Part shown: piece after piece, positions 15,943 through 62,026 of the stretch
How positions within the stretch are numbered: position 1 is the first letter of the stretch
Layout: each line of letters starts with the position of its first letter
Origin: an uncultured Gammaproteobacteria bacterium
GTDB lineage: Bacteria > Patescibacteriota > Patescibacteriia > Magasanikbacterales > GWA2-37-8
NCBI GenBank assembly: GCA_964478235.1
Contig: CAYZGX010000001.1
Coordinates: 163,850-227,849, forward strand
DNA: 64,000 nucleotides
Direction: 5' to 3'
Made by a program: the position numbers and the translations under genes
The notes under the pieces: generated by a model
The model's input: the letters and a program-made list of their open reading frames with translations, nothing else
What the model was told of the DNA's origin: nothing
The model's database searches: none

Positions 15943-15965
15943 CTTACTTACCAACTAAATAATCT

Positions 15966-16169
15966 ATGGAAAACACTACTACACCAACCAGAACTCGTTG
16001 CGAAATTTGGACTCGTGTTATGGGTTATCATCGACCGCTATCACATTTTAATATCGGAAAAAAATCAGAGCACATCTCACGCAAGCACTTTACCGAATGC
16101 GTTTCAGCCAATAGTATTTTTATCAAAAAATACGCTCACCTTGGCCAACCACTCTACACTACTCGCTAA
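15966..16169 (+). CDS. nrdD: NrdD C-terminal glycyl-radical domain encoded as a separate 67-aa ORF in another frame (gene fragment or split gene)
   Basis: TRTRCEIWTRVMGYHRPLSHFNIGKKSEHISRKHF carries the class III RNR glycyl radical signature (RVxGY...NxGKxxE...R). It lies in frame 0 whereas the nrdD body is in frame 1. Confidence 0.6.
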   Translation: MENTTTPTRTRCEIWTRVMGYHRPLSHFNIGKKSEHISRKHFTECVSANSIFIKKYAHLGQPLYTTR

Positions 16170-16175
16170 GCTACT

Positions 16176-16880
16176 ATGCTTATTTCTGGCATACAACCTT
16201 TTACCTTGCTCGATTACCCTGGAAAAACCGCGTGCGTTGTCTTTTTGCCAGGTTGTAATTTTAGATGTGGCTACTGCCACAACAAGGAGTTTGTTTTACC
16301 AGAAAAAATAAAAGAGCTTCAAGGAAACTTTATCGATGAAGAGGTGGTCTACAATTTTCTCATCAACCGTCGCGATTTACTTGATGGCGTAGTTATTTCC
16401 GGAGGCGAGCCAACTATGATGCCTGACCTCATTCCCTTCATGCAAAAAATAAGACGACTAGGCTTTTCGGTGAAACTAGACACCAACGGCAACCGACCAG
16501 ATGTCATCACCAAAGCACTCGAGCTTCGTACCGTTGACTATATTGCCATGGATCTTAAGACCGACCTCCCCACCTATACCGCACTTGTAGGAAACGGCGC
16601 CAAAAAAGATGCGCTCGAACAAAGTATTAGCATTCTCCTCAACAGTCCGATTGACTACGAGTTCCGCTCCACCATTATCAAAGAAGTTCACTCAGACGCT
16701 ATTCTTGAAAGGATGGCTCAAGCTATCGCTGGAGCTAAACACTGGTATTTACAAAATTTCAGACCAGAAAACACTCTAGCTCCACACTTTGCCAACTACC
16801 ACCCTTTTGAAGAAGTAGAACTCAAAAAAATAGCTGAATATCTCAGCCCCTACGTACACAAACTAACTATTCGCTCATAA
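16176..16880 (+). CDS. nrdG: Anaerobic ribonucleotide reductase activating protein (radical SAM)
   Basis: N-terminal LLDYPGKTACVVFLPGCNFRCGYCHN carries the CxxxCxxC radical-SAM cluster motif typical of NrdG. Confidence 0.9.
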   Translation: MLISGIQPFTLLDYPGKTACVVFLPGCNFRCGYCHNKEFVLPEKIKELQGNFIDEEVVYNFLINRRDLLDGVVISGGEPTMMPDLIPFMQKIRRLGFSVKLDTNGNRPDVITKALELRTVDYIAMDLKTDLPTYTALVGNGAKKDALEQSISILLNSPIDYEFRSTIIKEVHSDAILERMAQAIAGAKHWYLQNFRPENTLAPHFANYHPFEEVELKKIAEYLSPYVHKLTIRS

Positions 16881-16886
16881 ATAAAA

Positions 16887-16916
16887 ACCCGGTCGCAGAA
16901 AGCGATCGGGTTTTTA
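16887..16916. terminator. Intrinsic terminator after nrdG (also facing the 3' end of rnpB)
   Basis: Hairpin CCCGGTCGC-agaa-GCGATCGGG followed by TTTTT. Confidence 0.6.
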
Positions 16917-16918
16917 AG

Positions 16919-17361
16919 TGTTTACAGCAATAAGCCGAATTTTGTTCCCCTTACGGGGTGATAATCATTTCTCTTGCCGGTACATTGCTATACCGATCAT
17001 CTGCCCGTCCTAAAGCTTTTAAGCTGACAGATATACTAGCGAGCGAACTTTCCGAGGCTATACCTGATGTATAGACACGCTGCTCTTGCACCAGATAGGG
17101 TTTAGCACTTGCTCTCTATTGCTAAAGAGCCGAGTAGAGTAGCTGTAGTCTTAAGAACAACAACTCCCCTACACTTTTCACCTTTCATCCCGATTATAGC
17201 CGGAATTAGTATTGTCTCTGTGCCACTGTCCCGAAGCGGATATTGCTATACGCCTGGTGGAGGTTATCCACTATCCTTGTCCCAATAGGTAGCGATAAAA
17301 ATTGGGGGTGTTCGGACTTTCCTCGACGACCCAAAGGTCGGCGCGATTATCTACTGTAAAC
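16919..17361 (-). ncRNA. rnpB: RNase P RNA, bacterial type A
   Basis: The reverse strand contains CGAGGAAAGTCCGAACAC (CR-I/P4), GGATGAAAGGTGAAAAGTG (P10-P12 GGGUGAAA region) and ACAAAATTCGGCTTATTGCTGTAAAC (CR-V ACAGAAnnCGGCUUA), with a P1 pairing to the 5' GTTTACAG. A promoter lies immediately upstream. Confidence 0.8.
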
Positions 17362-17367
17362 GGGCGT

Positions 17368-25011: not shown

Positions 25012-27621
25012 ATGTCATCCGCTCATAAGAGAGTCCAATTACGACGCTGCCAGGGTTGTAATAAACCCGGCCACAATCGCGCTCGCTGTACCGCCCCTCT
25101 CAGCGCTGTTGTGTCGACACTCCAAAAAACTATCACCAAATCACCTCGCGTTCAAAAAACTGAACCGACCGTTGTTGTTGCTAACAAAACTATTCCAACT
25201 ACCCCACCTGCCCCTCAGACATCCCGGCACCTCAAAATGTTCGTCCACCATGTTGATTCCCGCCCAGAACACTCTCCACATGTTGTAAACCTACGCTCCA
25301 AAAACGACATTAGTTGGAAAAAAACAACTGCCGCCTCTCCAGAAAAAAACGATTCACTCTATCACACCTATCATCAAACAATTGTCGAAGAAGCGACCAC
25401 GCTCCCGCCAATAACCACACTACCAATTTCATTACTACCAGTTTCTAAAGAACCCGGCGCTCTTCGTTCTTGGTTCAAAAAAATAACAACAAAGCCAACC
25501 CAATCCGACGAAGCAGTTTTTTCTGTAGAGCTACAAAAAACCTCTCCTCGACCAACAACGATTACCCCTAATCAAAATTTTCAGTTAGAGAAAACACCAT
25601 CTCTAACAGATCGCTGGCAGAATCTTACCCAGATGCTTCCTGGTGCCAAGCGTCTGGTGGCCGCTGGAACACTCTTAGCAATACTCGTCAGTGTTCCTGG
25701 TCCAGCATATGGCTATTACCAAGATATTTTAAGCACTAAAGCCTCAGTTATCAAAGATTCAAGCGAAGCTTTTTTAGCTCTTCAAGACTCCACCATCGCT
25801 TTAAAGCAAGCTGATTTCTCTAGAGCTGAAATAGCCACCGCCCAAGCTCTCGGCAAATTTAACACGGCTTTAAGCGCCCTCAACGACCACCGCTTCATTG
25901 AAACGTTGACCAGCATTATCCCTACCGTCGGCGGATCACTCGAGAGCCGACAAAAGATTCTACTAGCCGGTCAAGAAATTACCGTTGGCAACAGCTATCT
26001 ATTACAAGGCCTCAAAAAAGATGCTACTACTGGCGGATTTTCTAGCCACCTACAAACAGTCATCGAAAATCTCCACCTCGCTATTCCTAACTATGAAAAA
26101 GCTGCTCAAAACTTAGCCGAGGTTGACCCAAAAACACTTCCTATTGAATACCAAGCACAATTCGGAGATTTTCGTCGCCTCATGGGCAGCGTGCTTAGCG
26201 ATTTTAAAACTATCGACAGTGTCGGTTCATCATTTTTGGATATTTTTGGGACCAAAGGTACTCGACGCTATATCATTGTTTTCCAAAACCCAGCTGAACT
26301 TCGTCCAACTGGTGGTTTTATGGGAAGTTTTGCTGTGCTCACCGTCAAAGATGGAGCAATCACTAAGATGACTGTTCCTCCAGGCGGAACGTATGACCTC
26401 CAAGGACAGCTACGCAAAGTTGTTGAGCCTCCTACCCCCCTACTTCTTTCCAACAAACGTTGGGAATTCCAAGACGCCAACTGGTTCCCAAGCTTCCCGG
26501 TAAGTGCTGAAAAAATAATGTGGTTCTATCGCAACAGTCTCGGCGAAAGCGTTGATGGAGTTATTGCTATCAATGCCTCTGTTTTGGAACGCCTACTCAG
26601 CATTATGGGCCCAGTGACCGATGAAAAACGTGCTGTCACCCTACACAGCGACACCGCTCTCGCGACTATTCAAAAAATTGTTGAAGAAGGTCCAGAAAAA
26701 CAGATTAACAAACCAAAACAAATTATCGCTGATTTGGCTCCTGGGCTGGTAAAACAAATTAGCACGGCCAATACCGCTCAAATCATTCCTCTTTTAACCG
26801 AACTCCAAGAGGCTTTAGAACAAAAAGAAATCCAGGCCTATTTCACCGATGGAGAAGTGCAGAACACTATCAAAAACCTTGGTTGGTCGGGCGAGCTGGT
26901 TGCCACCAATAAAAACCAGGATTATGTTATGGTCGTCAACACCAATATTCAAGGCGAAAAAAGTGACGCCAATATATCTCAAACAGTGAGCCACCAATCA
27001 GTAGTAGCTCAAGACGGAACTATCACCAACACCGTCACTATTACTCGTCGTCATAATGGTACAAAAGGTGAAAAATTATACGGCACTACCAATATTAACT
27101 ACCTACGCTTATACGTTCCAGAGGGAAGCTCACTACTCAGCGCCAGTGGTTTTATGTGGCCCGACGAAAAAGCCTTCCGCGCTCCGCTAAAGTGGGCTGA
27201 GAAAGACACTCTTCTCACCGCCGTTGAAGATGAACAGTCTATCGACAGCGAAACTGGCACCAGAGTGACCAATGAGCTTGGAAAAACCGCTTTTGGCAAC
27301 TGGGTTATTACCGAACCAGGCAGTGAAAGCACTGTCAGCTTCACCTACCGCCTGCCATTCAAAATCCGCCCAATCATTGAACAAAAAACTGCTTGGGAAA
27401 AAGTCGTAGCCCCACTCACCAATCCAATCGCTCGTTACCAACTGATAGCTCAACGACAATCAGGATCGCTATCGACCTTTGATAGTCAGGTTATTTTTAC
27501 CAGCGACTGGCACCCCTACTGGCAAGAAGGCGAGAATATGACCCTTGCCACCAATGGCGCTCGTATCGCTCCAACCAACCTCACCAAAGATACCGTGTGG
27601 AGCTTGGTGATGCAGCGCTAA
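25012..27621 (+). CDS. Large membrane-anchored protein: N-terminal CCHC zinc-knuckle and Thr/Pro-rich cytoplasmic region, single TM, large extracytoplasmic domain (DUF4012-like, tentative)
   Basis: 869 aa. CQGCNKPGHNRARC at residues 13-26, TM at about residues 215-235, extracellular region with RYIIVFQNPAELRPTGGFMGSFAVL. Confidence 0.55.
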   Translation: MSSAHKRVQLRRCQGCNKPGHNRARCTAPLSAVVSTLQKTITKSPRVQKTEPTVVVANKTIPTTPPAPQTSRHLKMFVHHVDSRPEHSPHVVNLRSKNDISWKKTTAASPEKNDSLYHTYHQTIVEEATTLPPITTLPISLLPVSKEPGALRSWFKKITTKPTQSDEAVFSVELQKTSPRPTTITPNQNFQLEKTPSLTDRWQNLTQMLPGAKRLVAAGTLLAILVSVPGPAYGYYQDILSTKASVIKDSSEAFLALQDSTIALKQADFSRAEIATAQALGKFNTALSALNDHRFIETLTSIIPTVGGSLESRQKILLAGQEITVGNSYLLQGLKKDATTGGFSSHLQTVIENLHLAIPNYEKAAQNLAEVDPKTLPIEYQAQFGDFRRLMGSVLSDFKTIDSVGSSFLDIFGTKGTRRYIIVFQNPAELRPTGGFMGSFAVLTVKDGAITKMTVPPGGTYDLQGQLRKVVEPPTPLLLSNKRWEFQDANWFPSFPVSAEKIMWFYRNSLGESVDGVIAINASVLERLLSIMGPVTDEKRAVTLHSDTALATIQKIVEEGPEKQINKPKQIIADLAPGLVKQISTANTAQIIPLLTELQEALEQKEIQAYFTDGEVQNTIKNLGWSGELVATNKNQDYVMVVNTNIQGEKSDANISQTVSHQSVVAQDGTITNTVTITRRHNGTKGEKLYGTTNINYLRLYVPEGSSLLSASGFMWPDEKAFRAPLKWAEKDTLLTAVEDEQSIDSETGTRVTNELGKTAFGNWVITEPGSESTVSFTYRLPFKIRPIIEQKTAWEKVVAPLTNPIARYQLIAQRQSGSLSTFDSQVIFTSDWHPYWQEGENMTLATNGARIAPTNLTKDTVWSLVMQR

Positions 27622-27656
27622 ACGCTGTCCGTTCATTATTAGGGTTATTTATTTGT

Positions 27657-29522
27657 ATGCAACATCATAAAACCGCCCCTGCTTCTGATACTCCGCCTGA
27701 CGAGAAAAAATCACATCATCGTTTTACCAAAAAAAGAGCTTCTTCAGAAAATACCGACGAAGTCTACAGTGAAAAAAACATTGATCACACCATAGCTGCT
27801 ATTTATCAAGACGATAATGGTGAAATTCCTAATATGCAACGCATGACTATACAACGAAGCGGTTCTTTTGCGCGTTTTTTCACCTTTATCTTTTTAATCG
27901 GTATCGTCGGGGCAGTTTTGGCTTGGACCGGTTTCTTTTTCCTACCAAACAGCGACACCTCTCGCGACCAAGTCAGCTTAGTTTTTGAAGGTCCAAGCAC
28001 TGTTGAGCTCGGAGCTACCACCACCTTTAAACTAGTCTATGGAAACGATGGGACAGTTGATGTTACCAAACTCACTCTCAACGTCTATTACCCAGAAGGT
28101 TTCTACTTTATCACCAGTTCGAAGCCAACCTCTAATGCTGGTCGAAACGAATGGAAATTAGCCGATCTCTCTATCGGAAAAAATGCCGAACTACTCATTA
28201 CTGGTAAATTTTACGGCACACCTGATGAACAAAAGTCGTGGCGCGCTTTTTTAAACTATACCCCAACCAACTTTAATTCTGAACTACAAAAAATTAGTGC
28301 TAAAAATGTCATTATCGGCGACTCCCCCCTCTCTCTCACTATGTCCGGCCCAGACAAAGCTTCAATTGGTGTAGACGCGGCCTATAGTTTTGCTATTGAA
28401 GCCGACACCGATTGGAAAGGGCCACTTTTATTGGTACCACTTGTTCCAACCAACTTCCAAATTTCTTCATCCTCACCAGCGCTTGATAAAAACGGTCGTT
28501 GGAATGTTGTCTTTACCACTTCCACCCCTCGCCCACTCTTTAGTTTGCGTGGTCGTTTCAAAGATAGTACGGTCACAAGCACTATCAAAGCTAATCTGTA
28601 CGTTTCTATTCCAACATCAAACCAACTATTCGCCGTTGCTCACACTGAAATTACTCCAGAAATTGCTAAAAACTCCATTCCTTTTGCCACCGCTATCAAC
28701 GGCACAACCCAAGACTTTGACTCTCACCCTGGAGAAAAATTGGCTATCACTGTCAATCTCAAAAACACTTCGCCAGACGTGATGAAAAACGCCACTATTA
28801 GTCTTATTTTTGATGCCCCTTCAGTCAAACGAGCAAGTGCTCTTAGTTGGGGACAAATCAGCGACAAAAATGACGGTGTCATTGTTGGCGAACAAGTCAG
28901 CGACACTCTTCGACGCGGCACTATCACCTGGACCAGCAAACAAATTCCAGCACTAGCTCAAATTCAACCAAACAGCACCATTACTTTTGACCTCGCCCTG
29001 CCCATCAAAGACACTCGTGACTTTGACTTTAGCACTAGTAAAGAAAATACTATTAAAGTCGTTACCAACGCCACCTATCTTGATAAAACCAACACGACAA
29101 TTTCCACCGCAGCGAGCCCAATCACCATCACCCTTATTAGCGATCTCGCTTTTGAAAACCGAGACTCGGTGACCACTAATAGCCAAAGCAAAGAGGAACA
29201 TGCTGTTTCCTGGGTACTCACCAATAGTTACCACGATTTGAAAGATATCACTGTCACTGCCGATATCTATGGCGACACCACTTTCCTCGCTGGATCAACA
29301 TCTGGCGGATCAATGGTCTTCTCAGCCAAAGACAAACGCATCACCTGGACTATCCCTTCCATGCCTGAAAGCATTGATGTAGCCAACGGCACCTTCACCC
29401 TAGTCGTCAACGCGAAAAACCCAACTCAAAATACCTTACTTTCTAAAGTAAAAATCGAAGCCACTGACACTGTGGCCGGAAAAAAGATACTTCTATCTGG
29501 CAATGAAATAAAGCTTAAATAG
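27657..29522 (+). CDS. Membrane-anchored surface protein with repeated beta-sandwich (Ig/CARDB/DUF11-like) modules
   Basis: Start taken at the ATG at 27657 (the ORF track extends to 27597, overlapping the upstream gene). Cytoplasmic tail, TM FFTFIFLIGIVGAVLAWTGFFFL, then about 500 aa of repeats of the form LTLNVYYPEGF / ITVNLKNTS / ITVTADIYGD. Confidence 0.5.
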   Translation: MQHHKTAPASDTPPDEKKSHHRFTKKRASSENTDEVYSEKNIDHTIAAIYQDDNGEIPNMQRMTIQRSGSFARFFTFIFLIGIVGAVLAWTGFFFLPNSDTSRDQVSLVFEGPSTVELGATTTFKLVYGNDGTVDVTKLTLNVYYPEGFYFITSSKPTSNAGRNEWKLADLSIGKNAELLITGKFYGTPDEQKSWRAFLNYTPTNFNSELQKISAKNVIIGDSPLSLTMSGPDKASIGVDAAYSFAIEADTDWKGPLLLVPLVPTNFQISSSSPALDKNGRWNVVFTTSTPRPLFSLRGRFKDSTVTSTIKANLYVSIPTSNQLFAVAHTEITPEIAKNSIPFATAINGTTQDFDSHPGEKLAITVNLKNTSPDVMKNATISLIFDAPSVKRASALSWGQISDKNDGVIVGEQVSDTLRRGTITWTSKQIPALAQIQPNSTITFDLALPIKDTRDFDFSTSKENTIKVVTNATYLDKTNTTISTAASPITITLISDLAFENRDSVTTNSQSKEEHAVSWVLTNSYHDLKDITVTADIYGDTTFLAGSTSGGSMVFSAKDKRITWTIPSMPESIDVANGTFTLVVNAKNPTQNTLLSKVKIEATDTVAGKKILLSGNEIKLK

Positions 29523-33715: not shown

Positions 33716-35470
33716 TTATTCTGTCACCCGGAAGATTTCGTCAATAGTGGTAATCTTGTCGAGCGCCTTGAGTAAACCATCCTGAGCCATGGTCACCATG
33801 CCGTTTTTAACGGCAATTTCCTGAATAGTATACTCCGATAAGTTACCGCTCAGAATAATTTCTTCAATTTCCTTGTTCATCGTAAAAATCTCATAAATAC
33901 CAATACGACCCTTATAACCGATATTACTACACACCTCACAACCTTTGCCTTTATAAAAATGCAGGTTGTTCATATCGACATTCTTCTGCTCAGCTGGCGG
34001 CAAGGTGGTGAGTAGTTGTTTTACTTTTTCCATTTTCTCAGCTGGCGGAGTATCCTCTACAATGCAATTACTACAAATACGGCGCACCAAACGCTGGCCA
34101 ATCACCGAATTGAGGGACGGTGCCAAAAGAAACGGCCGAACCCCCATCGATAAAAAGCGCGGCAAGGCACCAGAAGCGCTATTGGTATGAATAGTAGATA
34201 ACATCAAATGACCAGTCAAAGCAGCCTGAATAGCAATTTCCGCCGTTTCTAAATCCCGGATTTCACCAACCATACAAATATCTGGATCTTGGCGTAAAAT
34301 ACTGCGTAAGCCTTTGGCAAAAGTATAATCTCGTCCTGGATCAACCTGACTTTGGTTAATCCCCTCCATTTTAATTTCAATCGGATCTTCCAGGGTAATA
34401 ATTTTTACCCCTGGTTTGTTGAGGGTGCGTAAAATTGCGTACAACGTCGTGGTTTTACCACTGCCAGTTGGACCAGTGGTAATAATCATACCATTTGGTC
34501 GTTCAATTTCTTTTTTGAGACGATCATGAGCGTCACCACGCAAACCAAGCTCATCAAACGTCACCCCTTTACTACCGCTGTGCAAAATACGCATAACCAC
34601 ACTCTCCCCATGAATAGTCGGAAGTGTAGAAACACGAATATCGAGACCGCCTGAGGGCAGCTGAAGGGTCACACGACCATCTTGCGGACGATCCGTCACG
34701 TTTAACTTTAACGCTGCCAAAAGCTTGATACGCGATATAAATCGTTTCCACTGCTCTTTTGGAAGCATGGTAATGTCGTGTAAAATACCATCAATACGAT
34801 AGCGAACTGCAATGCCACCCTCTTCAGCTTCAACGTGCATATCTGAAGAACCGAGCTTAATAGCTGACGCCACCATCAGTGTCAAAATATCAGTGATCGA
34901 AACATTAACAAAAGCTTGTTTTAAACTATCCAAGTTATTAATGCCTACATTATAGCGATTCATTTCTTCTTCGCTAATAATCACGTCTTTGGTGACTGGC
35001 TTATAAATAGGCAGCGTGGCGTAGAGAGCAATAATTTTCTGATAACTACGCTCAGAAATAAGGTAAACTTGAACATTAGAACCTTGTTTAGCCGCTAAAT
35101 CCGCTCTAATCTGTTCAACTCCTGGTGTGGCCGCGAGCGCCCCGATACGCGCCTGTTCATTGGAAAAATAAAAACAAATGGCTTTTTCTTTTTCAGCCAC
35201 CTCTTGAGGGATTGCTCGAAGAGCTTCCGAAGAAACTGGAAAATTTGTGAGATCAATGTAGGGCAGCCCTGCTTGTGCCGCCTGTGTTGCCACCTGTTCC
35301 TCTTTATCACGAACCGCAATTTCATCCATCTTATGCTGAAAGGCGTCACCGGCACTCGTGCCAGCCGGCGTATGCGAAGAAGGCGCCCCTGCTGGAGCAG
35401 TCGCCGCCGGCGCAGCGCCAGAGGCTGGCTTTTTTTTCACCAAATCATTAATCGATGGGAAATCAGACAT
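33716..35470 (-). CDS. pilB: Type IV pilus assembly ATPase PilB / GspE family
   Basis: GspII_E N-domain, Walker A GPTGSGKTTTLYA, Asp and His boxes, C-terminal tetracysteine CSNC...CEVC. Confidence 0.9.
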   Translation of the reverse strand: MSDFPSINDLVKKKPASGAAPAATAPAGAPSSHTPAGTSAGDAFQHKMDEIAVRDKEEQVATQAAQAGLPYIDLTNFPVSSEALRAIPQEVAEKEKAICFYFSNEQARIGALAATPGVEQIRADLAAKQGSNVQVYLISERSYQKIIALYATLPIYKPVTKDVIISEEEMNRYNVGINNLDSLKQAFVNVSITDILTLMVASAIKLGSSDMHVEAEEGGIAVRYRIDGILHDITMLPKEQWKRFISRIKLLAALKLNVTDRPQDGRVTLQLPSGGLDIRVSTLPTIHGESVVMRILHSGSKGVTFDELGLRGDAHDRLKKEIERPNGMIITTGPTGSGKTTTLYAILRTLNKPGVKIITLEDPIEIKMEGINQSQVDPGRDYTFAKGLRSILRQDPDICMVGEIRDLETAEIAIQAALTGHLMLSTIHTNSASGALPRFLSMGVRPFLLAPSLNSVIGQRLVRRICSNCIVEDTPPAEKMEKVKQLLTTLPPAEQKNVDMNNLHFYKGKGCEVCSNIGYKGRIGIYEIFTMNKEIEEIILSGNLSEYTIQEIAVKNGMVTMAQDGLLKALDKITTIDEIFRVTE

Positions 35471-45527: not shown

Positions 45528-46691
45528 CTACTTGGTTTGTAAAAATGTATATAACGCCCGAAGAGCTTGCTCTGTTACCACCTCTTCGCCACCAAATGAA
45601 AAGCGAACATATCCTGTATATCCAAAAGCACTCCCTGGCACCATTGCAATATTTCCTTCTTCCAACACTCGCTCGCAAAAAGCGACATCATCTTTTTCTT
45701 GAACTCCCAAAGAGCTGAGCGGCACAAAGGCGTAGAGGCCAGCTTCGGGTGGTGTCAGTGGTGAAAACAACTCTGAAAAAACTGCTACAAAATGATTACG
45801 TCGAGCTTCCATGATCGTTCGAACCTGCGTCTGTACCACCTCAGCTGATTCCAAAGCTCCAAGCACAGCCCACTGGCTCACACTCGATGTCCCGGTAGTA
45901 CTCTGACCTTGGATAAGTGTTACTCGTTCAACCACGTCGCATGGCGCCAAAACAAATCCCACTCGCCAGCCAGTCATCGCAAAATGTTTGGAAGCACTTT
46001 GAATAATAATGACGTTATCTTTATGTTCAAGAAACGAGCCACAAGATACAAACTCACGTCCATCATACGTTAACCCACTATAGACTTCGTCTGAAATAAC
46101 AATCACTCCTCGCTCCTTAGCAAACGCTAGCAACTCAGCCAACTCTTCTCGAGAATATAACGAACCGGTCGGGTTGCCAGCATTATTAAGAAAAATAATC
46201 TTCGTTCGCGAAGTAATTGTCTTCTTAAACAATTGCAGGGAGAGTTTAAAACCAGTTTCTGGACTAGCGACAGCAGTAATTGTTGTTCCACCAAATAATT
46301 CCACAATACTCGTATACGACACCCAGTATGGTGCCACAACCATTGCCTCAACTCCTGGCTCAACCAGAGCCTGGCAGACGGCGTACAACCCAAATTTTCC
46401 ACCACAGGTGACAACACACTCCTCAGGAGAAAATCGTGACTGATAAGCGGTGTTGACCCAAGCGGTCATAGCCGAACGAAGCTCAGGAATGCCGGCTACC
46501 GGAGTATATTGGGTTTTGCCTTCGCGAATAGCCTTTTCAGCTCGCGCCACCACCGCTTGATGTGGAGCAATAACCGGCTCGCCCACGCTAAGATTATGGA
46601 CAAAAATTCCTTGGGATTTTTTGTAAAGAGCACGGGTGTTCATGGCGACCGTGGCACTCGGTTCAACCTCCGTCAAACGAGAAAAATGCAT
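45528..46691 (-). CDS. Pyridoxal-phosphate-dependent aminotransferase, class I/II (aspartate aminotransferase-like)
   Basis: PLP-lysine motif SASKHFAMTGWRVGF and class-I aminotransferase fold. Confidence 0.8.
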   Translation of the reverse strand: MHFSRLTEVEPSATVAMNTRALYKKSQGIFVHNLSVGEPVIAPHQAVVARAEKAIREGKTQYTPVAGIPELRSAMTAWVNTAYQSRFSPEECVVTCGGKFGLYAVCQALVEPGVEAMVVAPYWVSYTSIVELFGGTTITAVASPETGFKLSLQLFKKTITSRTKIIFLNNAGNPTGSLYSREELAELLAFAKERGVIVISDEVYSGLTYDGREFVSCGSFLEHKDNVIIIQSASKHFAMTGWRVGFVLAPCDVVERVTLIQGQSTTGTSSVSQWAVLGALESAEVVQTQVRTIMEARRNHFVAVFSELFSPLTPPEAGLYAFVPLSSLGVQEKDDVAFCERVLEEGNIAMVPGSAFGYTGYVRFSFGGEEVVTEQALRALYTFLQTK

Positions 46692-52867: not shown

Positions 52868-52902
52868 AAAACCAATCGCCTCAAGCGATTGGTTTTTTTG
52901 TT
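52868..52902. terminator. Bidirectional intrinsic terminator (micro-ORF / 52914 gene)
   Basis: AAACCAATCGC-ctcaa-GCGATTGGTTTTTTTG. Confidence 0.55.
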
Positions 52903-54858: not shown

Positions 54859-55761
54859 TTAGAGCGAACTCCAGCGTGCAAAAATACCACACGGCAACAA
54901 ACGATCACTTTTTGACTCTTGAATAGTGAGTTCCCCCACTTCAATCTCGCCACCAAGGCCTTCTACCACTTCAGCCAGGTTATTTTTATACGCCAAAGCT
55001 GAATACCCAGAGGCATAGCCATTAATGAGTACAAAAAGAGGTTTATCGGATAAGATTTTTTTACACAAATCTAACAATATTGGAAAGTGTTCTTCAATTT
55101 TCCACACTTCGCCATTTGGACCATGTCCAAAAGCTGGCGGATCCATAATAATACCGTCATATTTCCGTCCACGCTTAATCTCGCGCTTCACAAATTCAAC
55201 AGCATCATCCAAAATCCAACGAATCGGCTTGGCGGCTAAATCCGAAGCAGTGGCATTGTCGCGCCCCCAGCCAATCGCCGTCTTTGAACCATCCACGTGG
55301 CACACTTCAGCGCCAGCTTGAGCAGCAGCTAAGCTCGCCCCGCCAGTGTAGCCAAACAAATTTAACACCTGCACCGTTCGTCCGGATTTTTTAATCTTCT
55401 CTCGCATCCACTGCCAATTTTGAGCTTGCTCAGGGAATAAACCAGTGTGTTTAAATGGTGATAATTTGATGTACATGCGCAATCCTGCAAAAGCAATATC
55501 CCAGCGCTCTGGGACCACAAATCGAGTTTTCCAAGCAGTGTCTTTACCCGAAGCCAAACCGCCTTTGGTCATCGTTTTTTCACGATTAAAATAAGCGTCG
55601 GCTTTGTTCCAAGTCGCTTCTGGCAAACGTTTTTTCCACAAAGCTTGTGGATCAGGGCGAGTGATGATGATTTTTCCATAGCGCTCCATTTTTTCCCCGT
55701 CGCCACTGTCTAGAAGTTCGTAATCGTCACTAGCTATCGTTGAAACAATTGAATAATCCAT
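54859..55761 (-). CDS. Class I SAM-dependent rRNA methyltransferase (RlmI/RlmK-like)
   Basis: Motif I VLNLFGYTGGASLAAAQAGA. RlmI-type C-terminal MTase with a short N-terminus. Confidence 0.75.
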   Translation of the reverse strand: MDYSIVSTIASDDYELLDSGDGEKMERYGKIIITRPDPQALWKKRLPEATWNKADAYFNREKTMTKGGLASGKDTAWKTRFVVPERWDIAFAGLRMYIKLSPFKHTGLFPEQAQNWQWMREKIKKSGRTVQVLNLFGYTGGASLAAAQAGAEVCHVDGSKTAIGWGRDNATASDLAAKPIRWILDDAVEFVKREIKRGRKYDGIIMDPPAFGHGPNGEVWKIEEHFPILLDLCKKILSDKPLFVLINGYASGYSALAYKNNLAEVVEGLGGEIEVGELTIQESKSDRLLPCGIFARWSSL

Positions 55762-55769
55762 ACAAAAAA

Positions 55770-56495
55770 TTATTTTCCAGTATACTCTATTTCACTTTCA
55801 TCTAATCGTTTGAGGCCTTCACCGCTGATTGCTTGTTCATGGGCGTGAGCGACCAAGCCGGGTAGGCGCCCTACCAAGAAAAACCCTTTAGCTAGTTCGG
55901 CTGGATACCCCATATCAAGAATAATCGCCGCCATCGCCCCATCGATATTGATCGGTAGTGGTTTAGAGGTTAACGATTGCAATTCTTTGCCAAAAGCTAC
56001 TGCTAAAGCACAATGTTGTTTATAAAAACCGGTCTTTTTTGCCAAAGCCAAGAGTGTTTTAGCTCGCTCATCGACAGCCAGCACCTTGTGCCCATAGCCC
56101 GGTACGCGAACCTTAGCATCTTTGAGTCGTTTTGCCAACCCTGCCAAGTCACGCTCGTGGATATACGCCTCAAAAAAATGCCCGGCACCCTCTATGGCCC
56201 CACCATGAAGCTCGCCGAGAGCTTGGACCCCAGCCGAGACCGCAGTATGAAGGCTATTACCCGTTGAAGCCACCGTGCGAGCAACTGTCGCCGACGGAGC
56301 GCCGACCCCATGATCAATTGCTGCCACAAACAACGCATTTAGCATTTTAGTTTGTTTAGCACTTGGCATTGATCCGGTCCACAAAAGAGCAATAACTTCA
56401 ACAAAACTCTTTTGTTGAATAAGAGCTGTTAATTTTTTACCACGAATACGTTCCCCTTCTTCGGTAATCTGCGTCAAAGCTGTTTTCCATTGCAT
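55770..56495 (-). CDS. Stand-alone citrate-synthase C-terminal-domain protein (citryl-CoA lyase-like)
   Basis: 241 aa. LGELHGGAIEGAGHF (HGGA catalytic His) and RVPGYGHKVLAVDERAK (GYGH catalytic His plus acidic residue) correspond to the citrate synthase catalytic triad region. The large N-terminal CS domain is absent. Confidence 0.7.
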   Translation of the reverse strand: MQWKTALTQITEEGERIRGKKLTALIQQKSFVEVIALLWTGSMPSAKQTKMLNALFVAAIDHGVGAPSATVARTVASTGNSLHTAVSAGVQALGELHGGAIEGAGHFFEAYIHERDLAGLAKRLKDAKVRVPGYGHKVLAVDERAKTLLALAKKTGFYKQHCALAVAFGKELQSLTSKPLPINIDGAMAAIILDMGYPAELAKGFFLVGRLPGLVAHAHEQAISGEGLKRLDESEIEYTGK

Positions 56496-56504
56496 ACAAA
56501 TACA

Positions 56505-57449
56505 TTAATAATTATAGCGATCATTATAACGATCTCGACGAAACACCCATTTAAGGATCAAATATAGAACAACGATACTCAGCACTGCTGCTGCCACCCG
56601 TTTTGGCTCATTATTATCAGTAATCACGAGCCAGCCTCGTTTCATTCCTTCAAAATAAGGCGCCGCTACAGCTGTATACTCTTTAAACTTGTAGTACCAA
56701 GCCTCGCCTTGGGCAATCGCTGACTTTGTTTGATTATACGCTGAGGTAATCCTGCCGGCGGTTGTTGTGATGGTTGAGGCAACATCTTCGGCCCTATTTA
56801 ACAGCTGACGGTTTTTATCCAACACTTCTTGGAAAGACGATTCGTCAGTTGTCGAAGTATTTTGCGGAGAAGCGGTGAGCATGGCCACAATTTTTTCACC
56901 CAAGACTTGTGGAGATAATTTCTTTTTTGCTCCGTCATCTACAACTTCCAAAGCAACCGACCCCAAAACAACATTGGCAATAGCCCCCGATCCAGCTGAG
57001 CCAGCAGCGGCCACCTGATCAACCGTTACTGGAGTAGCTGTTTTTGCTCCCAAAGTGAGCGGCGAGCCAGTAGAGCGGACTGTTTGTTCCAATGGAACCG
57101 TTGAAGTAGCTCCAGACAGCGTTCGTGCCAGAAGCGATTCCAATCGAGCTTGGACAGCATGCTCTCCTGAACTCGGTTGCCAGACAGCTTTAAGCTGAAC
57201 AGCCTGCTCTTTAGTCAAAGATGTAAAAGGGGTGGTGGTAATAAGCGTTTCATTGTCATAAAACCCCACCACACCATCAAGCAATGGATAGTCGTTATTA
57301 ATAACAACTGTATACAAAGTTATTGGTTGGGAAGCAGAAAAGGTTGTTGTCGAAAACCACAGACCAGTGCTTGGCACAAACCCAACAGTCGCCGCAGAAA
57401 CGGCGTTTGGGAATAAAAATAAAGCTAATACTACGAGAATACTACGCAT
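56505..57449 (-). CDS. Hypothetical secreted protein with signal peptide and C-terminal TM anchor
   Basis: Start at MRSILVVLALFLFPNAVSA, 4 nt after the upstream stop. Ser/Thr/Ala-rich body and C-terminal hydrophobic anchor AAAVLSIVVLYLILKWVF. Confidence 0.5.
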   Translation of the reverse strand: MRSILVVLALFLFPNAVSAATVGFVPSTGLWFSTTTFSASQPITLYTVVINNDYPLLDGVVGFYDNETLITTTPFTSLTKEQAVQLKAVWQPSSGEHAVQARLESLLARTLSGATSTVPLEQTVRSTGSPLTLGAKTATPVTVDQVAAAGSAGSGAIANVVLGSVALEVVDDGAKKKLSPQVLGEKIVAMLTASPQNTSTTDESSFQEVLDKNRQLLNRAEDVASTITTTAGRITSAYNQTKSAIAQGEAWYYKFKEYTAVAAPYFEGMKRGWLVITDNNEPKRVAAAVLSIVVLYLILKWVFRRDRYNDRYNY

Positions 57450-58332
57450 ACGGCTGTACCAATTGTACCAGGTCTTCATAGCGCTCGGCAATCATAACCC
57501 CAACTGCATTCAAAGCTTTTTCTTTTTCCTCAGCCCCCTGCCCTTTAGCGACAATCGCTCCGGCGTGGCCAACATTCATCCCTTCTGGAAAAAGAGTAGC
57601 AAATTTTCCACCGATATATATCGCGAGCGGCTTGGTAAATTCTTTTTTCTTAATCGCTTCAATAATTTCAAACTCATAACTTCCACCATGTTCACCAAAA
57701 ATAGCTACGACTTTTGTCGCCGCATCTTTTTCAAATAGACGAAGTAAATCAGCGTAGGTGGTCCCCATAAGTAGATCGCCACCTACATGGACAGCAGCGC
57801 TCTGACCCAAACCAGCTTGGCGCATTTGCCAAGACAACTCATTTGTCATGCCGCCAGAGCGAGAAATAACCCCCACACTTCCCGGCTGAAAAATCTTATC
57901 AACCAAAGGCCCGCCAACCACCCCGATTCTCCCCACACCCGGAACGATAAAACCAAGAGAACTCGGACCAATAATACGAATATTTTTTTCTTTAGCCGCA
58001 GCCAAACAATAGGCTGTGTCTTTAATTGGAATACGCTCTACAATAATATTAATCAATGGAATACCAGCTTCTACCGCCTCTAAAATAGCGGCTTTGGCAG
58101 CAAACGGAGGCACGTAAATCGCTGTGGTATTCACTTCTGGAAAATTTTCCAGGGCTTCGGCAACAGAATTAAAAACAGGGCGACCTTCCACTTCTTGTCC
58201 ACCTTTTTTAGGGGTCACACCACAGACCACTTGAGTATGGTATTCACTCATTGCTTTCACTGCTTTTTGCCCCTCTTTACCAGTGATACCCTGAATAAGA
58301 ACTTTTGTTTTATCAGACAATAAAATACCCAT
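57442..58332 (-). CDS. Succinyl-CoA synthetase alpha-subunit-like protein (CoA-binding plus phosphohistidine domain; SucD / CcsB / AclA N-terminal-like)
   Basis: VLIQGITGKEGQ CoA-binding motif, VISRSGGMTNE, and the phospho-His loop MNVGHAGAIV. Confidence 0.85.
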   Translation of the reverse strand: MGILLSDKTKVLIQGITGKEGQKAVKAMSEYHTQVVCGVTPKKGGQEVEGRPVFNSVAEALENFPEVNTTAIYVPPFAAKAAILEAVEAGIPLINIIVERIPIKDTAYCLAAAKEKNIRIIGPSSLGFIVPGVGRIGVVGGPLVDKIFQPGSVGVISRSGGMTNELSWQMRQAGLGQSAAVHVGGDLLMGTTYADLLRLFEKDAATKVVAIFGEHGGSYEFEIIEAIKKKEFTKPLAIYIGGKFATLFPEGMNVGHAGAIVAKGQGAEEKEKALNAVGVMIAERYEDLVQLVQPYA

Positions 58333-58333
58333 A

Positions 58334-59566
58334 CTAACGACCTAAAGAATGAAGATGGTTTTTTAAAACCTTGCTGGCCTGATCTATCTTTTTACGAAAA
58401 ACTGCTAATTGCCCTACATCATCAAGCGCCGTCTCATCAGACAGCGAGAGCATTTCCGCCAGTTCACTATCTATTTTTTTACCAAACATTTTATTAAACA
58501 AACCTTTCTGAGTAGCAAGCACTTTTTCTCTCAACTTCACATACTCGGCGTAAGCATCCTTGGCATACAATTGAGCTTCAGCGATTTTTCTTTTTTCTTG
58601 AGCTTGTTTTTTTTCTTGTTGGCGAGTGTCATAGCGTGACACAACATCACCAAGTAAAACATCGTCAGGAAAAGCTTCGGCCAAACGTTTCACCAAATGA
58701 CCGCGAACAACTTCTCCAGTTTGACTATGTAATTTTTGAATAATACTCAATAAATCATCTTTAGACTGAAGTTTACCCTGAAACCACCGACCCAAATCAG
58801 TTTTTGGCTTAAAATCAGCTAACGCATATTTTTTACCAGGCTCTGGAGTGACAATAGTTATAGTTAAATCTTCTGCTGGCACGTCAGGCACCCGAGCATC
58901 TCGCACACCGATAATCGCTCGACGATCTTGTAGTAAATCAAGCACCGAAGCCACCCCGCTACCAGCCCCAGAAGTCGGTAGTGTTATTTTATTAACATTC
59001 CCATCTTGAAGTGCGTCGATTGTCTGCAAAAGCATATCTCGGAAATGACCAGGCTGATAGACATGTTCAGAAATAAAAACTGGATCAGCCAAATGACGAT
59101 CCTGTTCACGTTTCATGCCTTCGTAATTAACCTGATCATTTTTAAGTGTAGCGAAAGACAAACCAAAACCAGACTCACGCTGTAATTGCTTTCGAGAAGC
59201 CCCCTGAACAACGAGCTCAGCCCGACTTGTCCCATCAAGCCCAGAAACAAGGGCTGTGTGAAGCACTGTCAAAACATCACCTTCACGTACCACCGCAGCA
59301 ACAGGCTCTCGACGTCCACCATCACCAACTAAACTTCGTGTGGTTTCAAAAACATAGGTGCCTGCAGGTTTTTCACCGACAAATTTCTGAAAATTACCAC
59401 CATCTCCTCGTCTTGAATATTCTATTCCCTGCCAGGTAGACGGAGAAATATCTTCACTAACCTCAAAAACACTAGTATCTTTTTTTTCAGACGAGGTAGT
59501 TTCTTTTTTTGCCTGAAATTCTTCATGAGCTTCAGGAACAAGCGGGGATTGATGTTCTCTAGGCAT
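58334..59566 (-). CDS. Hypothetical cytosolic protein (410 aa) translationally coupled between the sucC-like and sucD-like genes
   Basis: No recognised motif apart from the Gly-rich LPTSGAGSGVASVL. It lies 3 nt after the sucC-like stop and 1 nt before the sucD-like start. Confidence 0.5.
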   Translation of the reverse strand: MPREHQSPLVPEAHEEFQAKKETTSSEKKDTSVFEVSEDISPSTWQGIEYSRRGDGGNFQKFVGEKPAGTYVFETTRSLVGDGGRREPVAAVVREGDVLTVLHTALVSGLDGTSRAELVVQGASRKQLQRESGFGLSFATLKNDQVNYEGMKREQDRHLADPVFISEHVYQPGHFRDMLLQTIDALQDGNVNKITLPTSGAGSGVASVLDLLQDRRAIIGVRDARVPDVPAEDLTITIVTPEPGKKYALADFKPKTDLGRWFQGKLQSKDDLLSIIQKLHSQTGEVVRGHLVKRLAEAFPDDVLLGDVVSRYDTRQQEKKQAQEKRKIAEAQLYAKDAYAEYVKLREKVLATQKGLFNKMFGKKIDSELAEMLSLSDETALDDVGQLAVFRKKIDQASKVLKNHLHSLGR

Positions 59567-59569
59567 AGG

Positions 59570-60724
59570 CTAAACAATTAAACGAGCTAAAATACCAGCT
59601 GTATCGCTCATTGAAGTTTCTTTGCCAAAAAAATGCATCATAAGACCATTGCGCTCAGCGCACGATTTCATAAGCCGCATTCCTTCTTCTTCAAATGGAC
59701 CGGCTCGACGGATCACAATTGGATAGTTTGGTTTAATCTCATCAAGTGCGTCCACAATGCCATGAAATGTCTCGGCAATATTGGTGAAATTAGCTACTCC
59801 GCCGGCAATCCACAAACCTCGAAGCCCCGGCTTTGATAAAACAATTTTAGCCAGCTCGCGCACCTTTTCACGTGGCGGATTACCAGAATATTCCGTATAA
59901 TTTGCCGGCTTAAGACCGGCCTTAATAAGCGCATCCATATTAGCAATACTCGCTCCCCCACCAGAAAACAAAATAGCAATATCCCCGTCCATTTCAATAT
60001 ATTTACCAGCTGTTCCACGGTAATACCCCTCACCTTCATCAATCTTTTTTACTGCCACCTCTCGCTCGGTTGGCAACCGCCCCATCATGGTACGTGGCTC
60101 AAGCTGGCTCCACTCTTCATGACGATAAAAAGCATCTTCATCGAGAGCAATTTTAGCATCCGCAGCCACATACCTGCCATCGGTTGTGATAATAAGTGGA
60201 TTAATTTCAATTTGACGAGTGTCCTCGGCTAAAAAACAATTCCAGATTTTTTGAAAAATATCACTCTTTGGCAACAAAGGGCTCAACACCTCTGATACAC
60301 GAATATCAAGTGGTGCTCGGACAATTTTTTCAGCCGACACCTCTTCAATATCCATACCACCCTCACGAGAATAGAGTATCATTGGTTGCTGCGAGGTAGT
60401 GTTATAGACTATTGAAACATATTCTTCTCGAGCAATAACTATTTTTTCTTCTACAAGTGCCGAAGCAACATGCTGACCACGAATCGTAGTGGTAAAAAGC
60501 TGGTTGCACGCTCGAACAACCTCGTCAGCTGACGAACAAAAAACTATACCATTATTTTTTCCGCGCTTACCAGACAATACTTGCGCCTTAACAACCACCT
60601 CAGAGATGCCAAGCGCGCTATACAAAGAAGCAGCATCATCACCACGACGAACAACAACTCCTTTTGGGGTAGTAATACCGTATTTTTGAAGTAATTGCTT
60701 GCCTTCAAATTCGTATAAATTCAT
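59570..60724 (-). CDS. Succinyl-CoA synthetase beta-subunit-like protein (ATP-grasp; SucC / CcsA / AclB-like)
   Basis: MNLYEFEGKQLLQKYGITTP, ATP-grasp lysine VVKAQVLSGKRGK, and ligase-CoA domain SGGGASIANMDAL...WIAGGVANFTNIA. Confidence 0.85.
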   Translation of the reverse strand: MNLYEFEGKQLLQKYGITTPKGVVVRRGDDAASLYSALGISEVVVKAQVLSGKRGKNNGIVFCSSADEVVRACNQLFTTTIRGQHVASALVEEKIVIAREEYVSIVYNTTSQQPMILYSREGGMDIEEVSAEKIVRAPLDIRVSEVLSPLLPKSDIFQKIWNCFLAEDTRQIEINPLIITTDGRYVAADAKIALDEDAFYRHEEWSQLEPRTMMGRLPTEREVAVKKIDEGEGYYRGTAGKYIEMDGDIAILFSGGGASIANMDALIKAGLKPANYTEYSGNPPREKVRELAKIVLSKPGLRGLWIAGGVANFTNIAETFHGIVDALDEIKPNYPIVIRRAGPFEEEGMRLMKSCAERNGLMMHFFGKETSMSDTAGILARLIV

Positions 60725-60728
60725 ATTC

Positions 60729-61061
60729 TTAAAAATTCAAACGAAATTCCACACCATATTTAGCAAATCCAAACGACTCGTACCATGAATGGAGTTCATC
60801 TTTGCCATAACGGCTCGTACACAAAAGTTTATAGCAGGCTTGAGCACGAGCTTCGGCAATAACTTCCTCCACCAATTTGCGCCCAATCCCTTTTTTTCGA
60901 GATGACTCAACTACAAATAAGTCTTCTAACAGACCAAACGGCTCTTCGTGTAAATCGTTGTGCAAAATATACAAAAAAACCCGACCAACTACTTGGCCTT
61001 TTTCTTTGGCTTCAAATCGCACGCCACGAGCTTTGGTAACTATCTTTTTTTCAATGTTCAT
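60729..61061 (-). CDS. GNAT-family N-acetyltransferase
   Basis: 110 aa with acetyl-CoA-binding motif RKKGIGRKLVEEVIAEA. Confidence 0.75.
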   Translation of the reverse strand: MNIEKKIVTKARGVRFEAKEKGQVVGRVFLYILHNDLHEEPFGLLEDLFVVESSRKKGIGRKLVEEVIAEARAQACYKLLCTSRYGKDELHSWYESFGFAKYGVEFRLNF

Positions 61062-62026
61062 ACAAGTACTTTCTTAAATATCTCACCTAATCGTTCTTTG
61101 CTGAGACCGCCGCCATCACGTTCAAACGGATAGCCAAACATCATGTAGCGCTCTTTCAGCACCTCGACATCTCGCGTTGCCACCCCCCACTTTTTCTCTT
61201 CATAAAATCGCCGCTCTTTAGCACCCAAATCAGCGGTGTTATAAATAACAATATTAATCGATCGTGGAACATAGCGCTGGAGCGCTTCAACAAAACCAGC
61301 CATCGTAGTTGGACCAAGCTCCCCCTCCGCCTCATAACCATTACCAACCACATAAACTAGTTTCGCCTTTGATTGTTTAAGCACTTGTTTCACCTCAGGA
61401 ATAAGCAAACTCGGAATAATACTCGTATACAAACTACCTGGACCTAAAATAATATAATCAGCCTGGCGAAGTGCCTCTAAAGCAGGTTGATACGCTCTCA
61501 CTCCTTCAGGTTTTAGCCAAACACTGGTAATTGTCTTACCTCGCTCCTCTCGAGAAGGCCGGTCAATTGCCACTTCAGTGGTTTGCTCTGTGCCATCATT
61601 CAACTCAGCGTGAAGCTGGGTATTTTCCAGTGTCACTGGCAATACTGGCCCAACACATTCAAGAGCTTGCGACAAAGCCAAAAGAGCATCGGGATATTTT
61701 TTATCCGAATACTGGCTCGCTAAAATCAAAAAAAGATTTCCTAAATTATGTTGACTAAGAGCTCCAGCATCAGTAAATCTTTTTTCATAAAAAATCTGAC
61801 GCAACGTATAATAATCATATTTTGACATTGCCAAAAGCGCCCGCAAAATATCTCCCGGCGGCAGTGTAGAAAACTCTTTACGAAGTCGGCCAGATGATCC
61901 GCCCGAGTCACTCATTCCAATCACCGCTGAAACAGAAAATTGTACCCCACTTCGACGCAGCGCCAAAAGAGATACGGCCGCTCCGTTCCCCCCACCAATA
62001 ACTACTACATTTTTTACTTTGGACAT
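61058..62026 (-). CDS. YvcK / CofD-family protein (gluconeogenesis factor, UPF0052)
   Basis: VVVIGGGNGAAV and IILGPGSLYTSIIPSLL motifs. Confidence 0.8.
   Translation of the reverse strand: MSKVKNVVVIGGGNGAAVSLLALRRSGVQFSVSAVIGMSDSGGSSGRLRKEFSTLPPGDILRALLAMSKYDYYTLRQIFYEKRFTDAGALSQHNLGNLFLILASQYSDKKYPDALLALSQALECVGPVLPVTLENTQLHAELNDGTEQTTEVAIDRPSREERGKTITSVWLKPEGVRAYQPALEALRQADYIILGPGSLYTSIIPSLLIPEVKQVLKQSKAKLVYVVGNGYEAEGELGPTTMAGFVEALQRYVPRSINIVIYNTADLGAKERRFYEEKKWGVATRDVEVLKERYMMFGYPFERDGGGLSKERLGEIFKKVLV

Follow-up and report, generated by a model that had tools for sequence, protein, structure and literature searches.

A probable citryl-CoA synthetase and citryl-CoA lyase gene set of Candidatus Magasanikbacteria and the genes interleaved with it

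What would a small bacterial genome without a visible tricarboxylic acid (TCA) cycle do with genes resembling those of succinyl-CoA synthetase (SCS) and of citrate synthase, and are the two genes interleaved with them parts of the same enzyme? This question is raised by a 64,000-nt stretch of DNA (the window) from Candidatus Magasanikbacteria, which belong to the Candidate Phyla Radiation (CPR, Patescibacteria). A preliminary description of the window had listed five minus-strand open reading frames (ORFs), namely a SucC-like gene, a gene for a 410-aa protein, a SucD-like gene, a gene for a secreted protein and a gene equal to the catalytic half of citrate synthase, and had proposed citryl-CoA synthetase (CCS) plus citryl-CoA lyase (CCL) or a split ATP-citrate lyase (ACL). 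The minus-strand ORFs were re-listed with their coordinates, and all five were found exactly where they had been placed. The comparisons reported here suggest that three polypeptides encoded in the window make up an ATP-dependent system for citrate cleavage of the CCS/CCL type, and we put the probability of this reading at roughly 0.7.

The ccsA-like gene for the putative large subunit (59570..60724, minus strand) encodes 384 aa that combine an ATP-grasp domain with an ACL-type citrate-binding domain. In Pfam, the protein matched PF08442, the SCS-type ATP-grasp domain, with 138.8 bits and PF16114 (Citrate_bind) with 108.3 bits against a cut-off of 26.8, the latter over positions 7–170 of the 177 in the profile, and PF24948 gave 43 bits, which is under its cut-off of 83. 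The SucC equivalog models of NCBIfam scored 239–244 bits and thus missed their cut-offs of 370–375 by more than 130 bits. The best match in the PDB was the CCS large subunit of Hydrogenobacter thermophilus (6HXQ_B, E = 1.9e-62, 215 bits), followed by the best SCS-beta (2.6e-46) and by AclB of Chlorobium (1.5e-43, 152 bits). When the C-terminal domain was searched alone, the E-values were 3e-30 for CCS, 3e-21 for AclB, 6e-20 for human ACLY and 2e-13 for SCS-beta. This domain carries the motifs EYSG (G281), ANFTN (residues 311–315, with N312 and T314) and RRAGP (residues 339–343, with R340). The patterns ANYxEYSG, ANFTN and RRxGP align column by column with G309, N346-F347-T348 and R379 of human ACLY, the numbering being counted on the alignment, and SucC has GGIMxCD and VVRxxG at these positions instead. 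In human ACLY, G309, N346, T348 and R379 reportedly contact citrate (Sun et al. 2010).

The relationship was also followed in bootstrapped neighbour-joining (NJ) trees on corrected p-distances, built from sequences of the fetched loci (designated here by L numbers) and from PDB sequences transcribed from printed alignments; such trees are adequate for the coarse split between CCS and SCS, not for fine topology. The large subunits of Magasanikbacteria together with two CcsA sequences of Aquificae separated from 28 SucC sequences in 100 of 100 bootstraps, and the citrate-type C-terminal domain separated from that of SucC in 200 of 200. Judged by sequence, the large subunit is a member of the CcsA/ACL-beta family and not a SucC.

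The ccsB-like gene for the putative small subunit (57442..58332, minus strand) encodes 296 aa with a CoA-binding domain (PF02629, CoA_binding) followed by PF00549/PF13607 (Ligase_CoA) in Pfam, and the phospho-histidine loop GHAGA is kept with its His256. The SucD equivalog models of NCBIfam gave 273–279 bits and their cut-offs of 336–353 were not reached. In the NJ tree, the small subunits grouped with CcsB of Aquificaceae in 196 of 200 bootstraps and never with the SucD of Aeropyrum alone.

The third catalytic gene, ccl (55770..56495, minus strand), encodes 241 aa that passed the NCBIfam citryl-CoA lyase model NF004869 (242.1 bits, cut-off 212). Its residues 3–240 aligned with residues 5–246 of the 268 in the stand-alone CCL of Hydrogenobacter (6HXP_A, E = 2.8e-56, 194 bits), whereas the C-terminal module of the ACL alpha subunit AclA gave E = 1.9e-24 (90 bits) and the citrate synthases about 1e-17. 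The catalytic residues His97 (in HGGA), His136 (in GYGH) and Asp185 (in NIDGA) are retained, so that the motifs reported in the preliminary description, GHAGA of the small subunit included, were all present. The Pfam Citrate_synt profile was matched only over positions 165–348 of 357, the best citrate synthase model reached 90 bits against a cut-off of 332, and the protein is much shorter than the full enzyme of ~370–430 aa. The 241-aa protein is thus predicted to be a complete stand-alone CCL. A decayed citrate synthase fragment was considered and ruled out, since the CCL is complete from end to end and no remnant of the N-terminal half was found upstream, the gene directly upstream of ccl having no citrate synthase similarity in Pfam. 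The profile searches and the phylogeny that had been suggested as checks therefore bear out a CCS/CCL-type set. The large subunit goes with CcsA and the lyase with NF004869, the small subunit goes with CcsB in the tree and slightly more with archaeal SCS-alpha by PDB score, and neither synthetase subunit falls within bona fide SCS. The outcome that had been named as counting against such a set, namely branching inside SucCD together with a citrate synthase pseudogene, did not appear.

Among the characterised systems, CcsAB and Ccl of Hydrogenobacter thermophilus and other Aquificaceae (PDB 6HXQ and 6HXP) came closest in the PDB to the large subunit and, over the full length, to the lyase. They have the same three separate polypeptides and domain content, the same phospho-His loop and the same His/His/Asp lyase residues, and both of their synthetase subunits group with those of the window in the trees. 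Identity to the window set is ~38% for the large subunit, 42% for the small subunit and about half of the aligned positions for the lyase. The systems also differ in other ways. Magasanikbacteria have the three genes in collinear order within a single cluster, but a ccl gene was not found on contig L014 of Aquificaceae, and the citrate-binding domain of Aquificae is less ACL-like. The Aquificae host is an autotroph using the reductive TCA cycle, whereas the Magasanikbacteria host is a non-autotrophic member of the CPR in which no TCA cycle is visible. The bacterial AclBA (Chlorobium limicola, PDB 6HXJ) and the eukaryotic ACLY have the same chemistry and the same modules. However, AclA fuses the CoA-binding/phospho-His module to the CCL module, whereas ccsB and ccl are separate here, and the set is therefore not a canonical ACL. 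In addition, the overall ACL scores for the large subunit and the lyase are below those of CCS, and the large subunit has an SCS/CCS-type ATP-grasp domain. SucCD shares with it common ancestry, an ATP-grasp beta subunit, a CoA-binding phospho-His alpha subunit and 35–47% identity. It differs in that the C-terminal domain of the window beta subunit is Citrate_bind and not of the SucC type, in that the window proteins do not reach the equivalog cut-offs and are phylogenetically separate, and in that their genes are linked to ccl and not to TCA genes.

In the mechanism that we propose, the large subunit would bind ATP through the ATP-grasp domain and citrate through the C-terminal domain, and His256 of the small subunit would be phosphorylated and hand its phosphate to citrate. 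The CoA held on the small subunit would then attack citryl-phosphate to give citryl-CoA, which the separate lyase would cleave into acetyl-CoA and oxaloacetate with His97, His136 and Asp185. Every step of it is inferred from characterised homologues among the CCS/CCL, ACL and SCS enzymes. In a probably host-dependent cell without a TCA cycle, the most likely role of such a system would be to convert citrate scavenged from a host or the environment into acetyl-CoA for acetylations, for example of amino-sugar and cell-wall precursors, and into oxaloacetate for aspartate through the aspartate-aminotransferase-like gene at 45528–46691, which may serve as an oxaloacetate sink. Amino-sugar genes (GlmS, an HAD phosphatase, YvcK and GNAT) lie nearby and are a suggestive hint that acetyl-CoA is in demand. 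As these genes are part of the conserved backbone and not of the island of ccs genes, they were not counted as linkage evidence.

Several observations weigh against the citrate-cleaving reading. No citrate transporter and no pathway consuming oxaloacetate or acetyl-CoA was recognised in the 64-kb window. The small subunit scored slightly higher in the PDB with archaeal SCS-alpha (246 bits) than with the CCS small subunit 6HXQ_A (220 bits), and the NJ trees held few ACL references. The substrate and direction of the reaction are read from homology only. As to the interleaved genes, the gene for the 410-aa protein is found at the ccsA/ccsB junction of the window and of the related loci L004 and L006 alike, although identity has fallen to 26% between the window and L006, and it is under purifying selection; this may indicate a lineage-specific functional link.

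The rest of the window is of a content typical of the CPR and includes genes for a PilB-type ATPase, FemAB, GT4 glycosyltransferases, Nramp, UvrA, GyrA, FtsH, ThrRS, transketolase, GpsA, a YvcK-type UDP-GlcNAc-binding protein and GlmS. Among its ~50 ORFs no TCA enzyme was seen, in agreement with the preliminary description. NrdD and its radical-SAM activase, which make up an anaerobic ribonucleotide reductase and fit an anaerobic lifestyle, are encoded at 14107–16880 and 16915–17362, and next to them the minus strand has an RNase P RNA of the bacterial class A (141 bits). Large proteins encoded at 25012–29522 and 6926–8473 had no matches apart from DUF4012, DUF11 or pilin-like families of type IV secretion. 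The PilB-type ATPase (33716–35470) lies beside the DUF4012, DUF11 and pilin-like proteins, a typical CPR surface and pilus repertoire that is possibly used for host attachment.

The alternative that survives best keeps the enzymes and turns the reaction round, so that acetyl-CoA and oxaloacetate would be condensed to citryl-CoA and then released as citrate with a gain of ATP. The ACL of Desulfobacter postgatei reportedly acts as such an ATP-yielding citrate synthase (Moller et al. 1987). The ACL and CCS/CCL reaction is near equilibrium, the standard free energy of citryl-CoA synthesis being given as -5.9 kJ/mol (preprint 10.1101/2022.10.25.513756), and any substrate-level ATP would be valuable to an anaerobe-like fermenter, as the NrdD and activase pair and the lack of visible respiratory genes in the window would have it. 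The reverse reaction would, however, need a steady supply of oxaloacetate, and neither phosphoenolpyruvate carboxylase nor pyruvate carboxylase was seen in the window. Acetate formation would give an equal amount of ATP per acetyl-CoA at no cost of a C4 acid. A citrate exporter was not found either, and the direction is not readable from sequence. We thus consider operation in reverse unlikely and keep citrate cleavage as the preferred reading.

The second half of the question concerns the interleaved genes, which the preliminary description had regarded as possible accessory subunits or a membrane tether. The 410-aa protein (58334..59566, minus strand) is cytoplasmic and sits at the ccsA/ccsB junction. 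It had no match in Pfam, NCBIfam, PHROGs, PADLOC or the PDB, and it has no transmembrane segment. A word-indexed search returned four relatives, and HMMER, run exhaustively over 1.84 billion representatives, returned eight. Its AlphaFold2 model, made from an alignment of three sequences, was poor (mean pLDDT, the per-residue model confidence, of 44.5) and confident only in the C-terminal helices. The secreted or surface protein (56505..57449, minus strand) has 314 aa when read from the ATG at 57449, which gives the canonical signal peptide MRSILVVLALFLFPNAVSA, and a reading of 328 aa from a TTG at 57491 is also possible. Hydropathy backed both the signal peptide and the C-terminal transmembrane helix and hence the earlier view of a secreted and C-terminally anchored protein. 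In the AlphaFold2 model, the signal peptide is followed by an Ig-like/CARDB-like beta-sandwich (pLDDT 76–88), a long helix and the C-terminal anchor. Foldseek found only generic beta-sandwich matches in the PDB with TM-scores <0.25, sequence searches of the PDB, Pfam, NCBIfam, PHROGs and PADLOC returned nothing credible, and 19 relatives were found. Both are real genes under purifying selection, with ratios of non-synonymous to synonymous substitution (dN/dS) of 0.12 for the 410-aa gene and 0.08 for the secreted gene against the orthologues of L004, a set that is 86–88% identical.

The arrangement of these genes was compared between relatives. The window and L004 have the order ccsA, 410-aa gene, ccsB, secreted gene and ccl. 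In L013 (Magasanikbacteria CG11), GNAT, ccsA, ccsB and ccl are contiguous, and ccsB and ccl are separate ORFs with a spacer of 25 nt. In L095 (Logan SRR32573210), whose ccsA is 77% identical, ccsA and ccsB are adjacent and are followed by the secreted gene and then by ccl. An unrelated 140-aa membrane ORF separates ccsA from ccsB and ccl in L010 (CAZWKA010000014.1), an unrelated 135-aa charged ORF does so in L011, and an ORF-less spacer of 978 nt in L012 (CAYJXK010000010.1). L006 (GCA_046590235.1) has ccsA, a methyltransferase gene, a gene for a 390-aa protein, ccsB, a NUDIX gene, the secreted gene and ccl. The loci L008 and L009 keep the backbone of GlmS, HAD, YvcK, GNAT, secreted gene, methyltransferase, RluA and MJ0043_C, but have no ccsA, ccsB or ccl, so that GNAT and the methyltransferase gene are the direct neighbours of the secreted gene there. 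The extra genes of L006 encode a class I S-adenosylmethionine-dependent methyltransferase (4860–5459) and a NUDIX hydrolase (7598–8017), and they underline the ease with which unrelated genes enter this cluster. In L095, the stretch 14785–16400 between RluA and the MJ0043_C-domain gene has a bAvd-like gene and, behind it, a reverse transcriptase gene (RVT_1). The pair lies downstream of the ccs cluster at a distance of a few kb and has the look of a diversity-generating retroelement.

From these arrangements, the ancestral order was most likely a contiguous ccsA-ccsB-ccl, collinear with aclB-aclA, and the simplest reading of the ccsA/ccsB junction is a hotspot that was filled repeatedly by unrelated, lineage-specific genes. 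Like the 410-aa and secreted proteins, the inserts of L006, L010 and L011 found no credible match in PHROGs or PADLOC, which argues against all of these being genes of phages, defence systems or known mobile elements, as far as such searches can tell. The spacer of L012 (9183–10160) has a GC content of 0.52–0.62 against 0.46 in its flanks. It had no match in Rfam at E <= 0.1 and resembled none of the fetched loci. It begins with a long perfect hairpin and a U-run right behind the ccsA stop, and its predicted RNA fold is, with -386 kcal/mol, far more stable than those of shuffled sequences (-337.5 ± 7.5 kcal/mol, z = -6.5). The spacer may be a non-coding RNA with structure, or else an insert that has decayed at the same hotspot.

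It was then asked of the same comparison whether the 410-aa protein, the secreted protein or both could be lineage-specific accessory components of the enzyme, such as a scaffold, a regulator or a membrane tether. The kept position of the 410-aa gene under purifying selection speaks for such a part, as does the secreted gene, which separates ccsB from ccl not only in the window but also in L004, L006 and L095, and the spacers of 1–3 nt together with the 8-nt overlap imply co-transcription. On the other hand, ccsA and ccsB are adjacent in L013 and L095, they are separated by unrelated ORFs in L010 and L011, and ccsB and ccl are adjacent in L010–L013, where the secreted gene is absent from the cluster. 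The secreted gene stays at its backbone site in L008 and L009 without the enzyme genes, and the distant members of the 410-aa family are not beside ccs genes on the available contigs, which are mostly 2–3 kb long. Evolution is slow in the catalytic genes (79–81% identity) and fast in the inserts (26–44%). Between the window and L006, identity is 79% for ccsA, 81% for ccsB and 70% for ccl, and 26% for the 410-aa protein and its positional counterpart of 390 aa. Unrelated flanking genes are packed equally tightly, and the protein with the modelled extracytoplasmic beta-sandwich has, apart from its short tail, no evident means of reaching a cytoplasmic enzyme. We therefore think it quite improbable that either protein is an accessory component. 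Since the inserts are absent or replaced in relatives with the same enzymes, and since the secreted gene is kept without CCS/CCL, the two genes are in good likelihood co-transcribed passengers and not subunits, and the idea of accessory subunits or a tether is not supported. The 410-aa gene is probably a lineage-specific insert, and the simplest reading of the secreted protein is a resident gene of the neighbourhood whose presence is independent of the enzyme.

The tight packing had also been taken for a tightly coupled operon. The close spacing holds, with 3, 1, -8 and 9 nt between the five genes from ccsA to ccl, but it is not special to them, as the flanking GNAT gene (4 nt) and an rRNA-methyltransferase-like gene (8 nt) are spaced just as tightly. 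Scans for promoters and terminators gave 29 matches against 20.8 ± 4.5 and 18 against 14.1 ± 3.7 in shuffled background, a signal no higher than the background, so that operon boundaries are not derivable from these scans. The sole strong terminator-like hairpin, further downstream, is a 12-bp palindrome at 52868–52896, with an A-run and a T-run on its flanks, between the MJ0043_C-domain gene and gpsA. It resembles a bidirectional terminator and likely marks the end of the co-directional string that holds the ccs genes. As the flanking genes are packed tightly and the only strong hairpin lies further downstream, the five genes do not form a delimited operon but belong to a longer co-directional string that runs from GlmS to the MJ0043_C-domain gene. 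Of the sigma-70-like matches in the region, the best (56511–56538, minus strand, TCGAGA-16-TATAAT, 10/12) falls within the secreted gene at its 3′ end, a little 5′ of the ccl start. It might be a promoter of ccl itself, the scan as a whole being at background. No purine-rich motif of the Shine-Dalgarno type was visible in the 25 nt 5′ of the nine starts inspected at 54859–62026. The sequences 5′ of these starts are AT-rich, with spacers of 1–9 nt or overlaps, which is consistent with leaderless-like or coupled translation in a CPR genome.

The weakest alternative, that the set is a succinyl-CoA or other acyl-CoA synthetase with a lyase for another hydroxy-acyl-CoA, for example of the 2-methylcitryl or citramalyl type, could draw on the SCS-beta names that NCBI gives to some homologues, on a small subunit that is by score no closer to CcsB than to SCS-alpha and on NCBIfam "citryl-CoA lyase" subfamilies of which, to our knowledge, most have not been characterised experimentally, but it is very unlikely in view of an ACL citrate-binding domain with the ACLY citrate-contact positions conserved, of the wide misses of every SCS and malate-CoA ligase equivalog cut-off, of the branching of both subunits away from SucC and SucD and of a lyase E-value far better with CCL than with any citrate or methylcitrate synthase.

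Within the preferred reading of a citrate-cleaving CCS/CCL, the citrate-binding domain shows a peculiar leaning. PF16114 scored 100–110 bits in the window, L013 and L095, against 49 bits in Hydrogenobacter (a C-terminally truncated transcript) and 62 bits in the full-length Aquificaceae protein of L014. Magasanikbacteria, Chlorobium AclB and human ACLY have the motifs GGGAS, ANYTEYSG and ANFTN in common, and the CcsA of Aquificae has GGGGS, ANFTDIGG and ANNTR. In an NJ tree of 107 columns with two ACL sequences, the domain grouped with AclB and human ACLY in 174 of 200 bootstraps and with Aquificae in 22 of 200. The ATP-grasp domain stays SCS/CCS-like, with PF24948 under its cut-off in all proteins compared. 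These results suggest, as a lead from two ACL references, an NJ tree and a short alignment, that the domain is more ACL-like in Magasanikbacteria than in the CcsA of Aquificae. With a gene order collinear with aclB-aclA, the set therefore looks like an unfused form that leans towards ACL. It is conceivable, though doubtful, that it represents an unfused, ACL-like evolutionary intermediate through which host-dependent cells lacking the TCA cycle would mainly turn scavenged citrate into acetyl-CoA and oxaloacetate, with the ccsA/ccsB junction, the site of the later ACLY linker, as a tolerated insertion site filled by differing genes or a structured RNA.

The distribution of the set was examined among sequenced relatives. 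In a collection of species representatives, the nearest genomes with ccsA were metagenome-assembled genomes (MAGs) of Magasanikbacteria with 62–74% identity, and the next matches beyond them were CcsA of Aquificaceae (34%) and then ordinary SucC (~30–34%). The exact large subunit is already present in a collection of 5.8 billion proteins, on contigs of up to 234 kb. More than 120 clusters were found at identities of at least 62% (most at least 67%), all with PF08442 and PF16114, and those with a taxon label are nearly all Magasanikbacteria or Patescibacteria. The records of L010 and L012 are titled "uncultured Gammaproteobacteria bacterium", though they have a Magasanikbacteria-type backbone and a ccsA 68–74% identical, and a protein of 70% identity (P0086) is labelled "Candidatus Udaeobacter sp."; these labels are probably placeholder taxonomy or reflect mis-binned contigs. 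The catalytic genes have dN/dS values of 0.04–0.08 (0.08 for ccsA against L004), as expected under purifying selection. Recent horizontal acquisition was ruled out, as the gene set does not stand out from the window in GC content and the Magasanikbacteria sequences form a monophyletic group that is widespread.

Homologues of CCS/CCL misannotated as SCS or citrate synthase have been noted in CPR bacteria and DPANN archaea (preprint 10.1101/2022.10.25.513756), and aclAB was found enriched in MAGs of Saccharimonadia (2025 Microbiome paper). Many homologues of the large subunit carry the Joint Genome Institute name "citryl-CoA synthetase large subunit", and those at NCBI are named "hypothetical", "ATP-grasp domain-containing" or "Succinyl-CoA synthetase, beta subunit". 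Our literature search found nothing specific on CCS/CCL in Magasanikbacteria or on its gene arrangement. CCS/CCL in the CPR is thus already known at the level of surveys and annotation, and what is added here is the comparison of the hotspot between relatives, together with the finding of a citrate domain that resembles that of ACL. The earlier remark that such genes are not expected in a streamlined genome was sound in that the window has no TCA genes, but overstated, as the set is conserved across Magasanikbacteria, annotated by the Joint Genome Institute and covered by the 2022 preprint.

For Magasanikbacteria, these findings would correct the common misannotation of the CCS large subunit as a hypothetical, ATP-grasp or succinyl-CoA synthetase beta protein. 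The interleaving of genes in tightly packed CPR genomes is, from this example, no evidence of functional association. The ACL-like citrate domain in an unfused, collinear set would be a data point for the fusion of CCS and CCL to ACL and for the origin of ACL and citrate synthase. A whole order of the CPR appears to conserve a putative ATP-dependent citrate-cleaving enzyme without a visible TCA cycle, and citrate would be a metabolite that such symbiont-like cells may draw from their hosts for acetyl-CoA and oxaloacetate.

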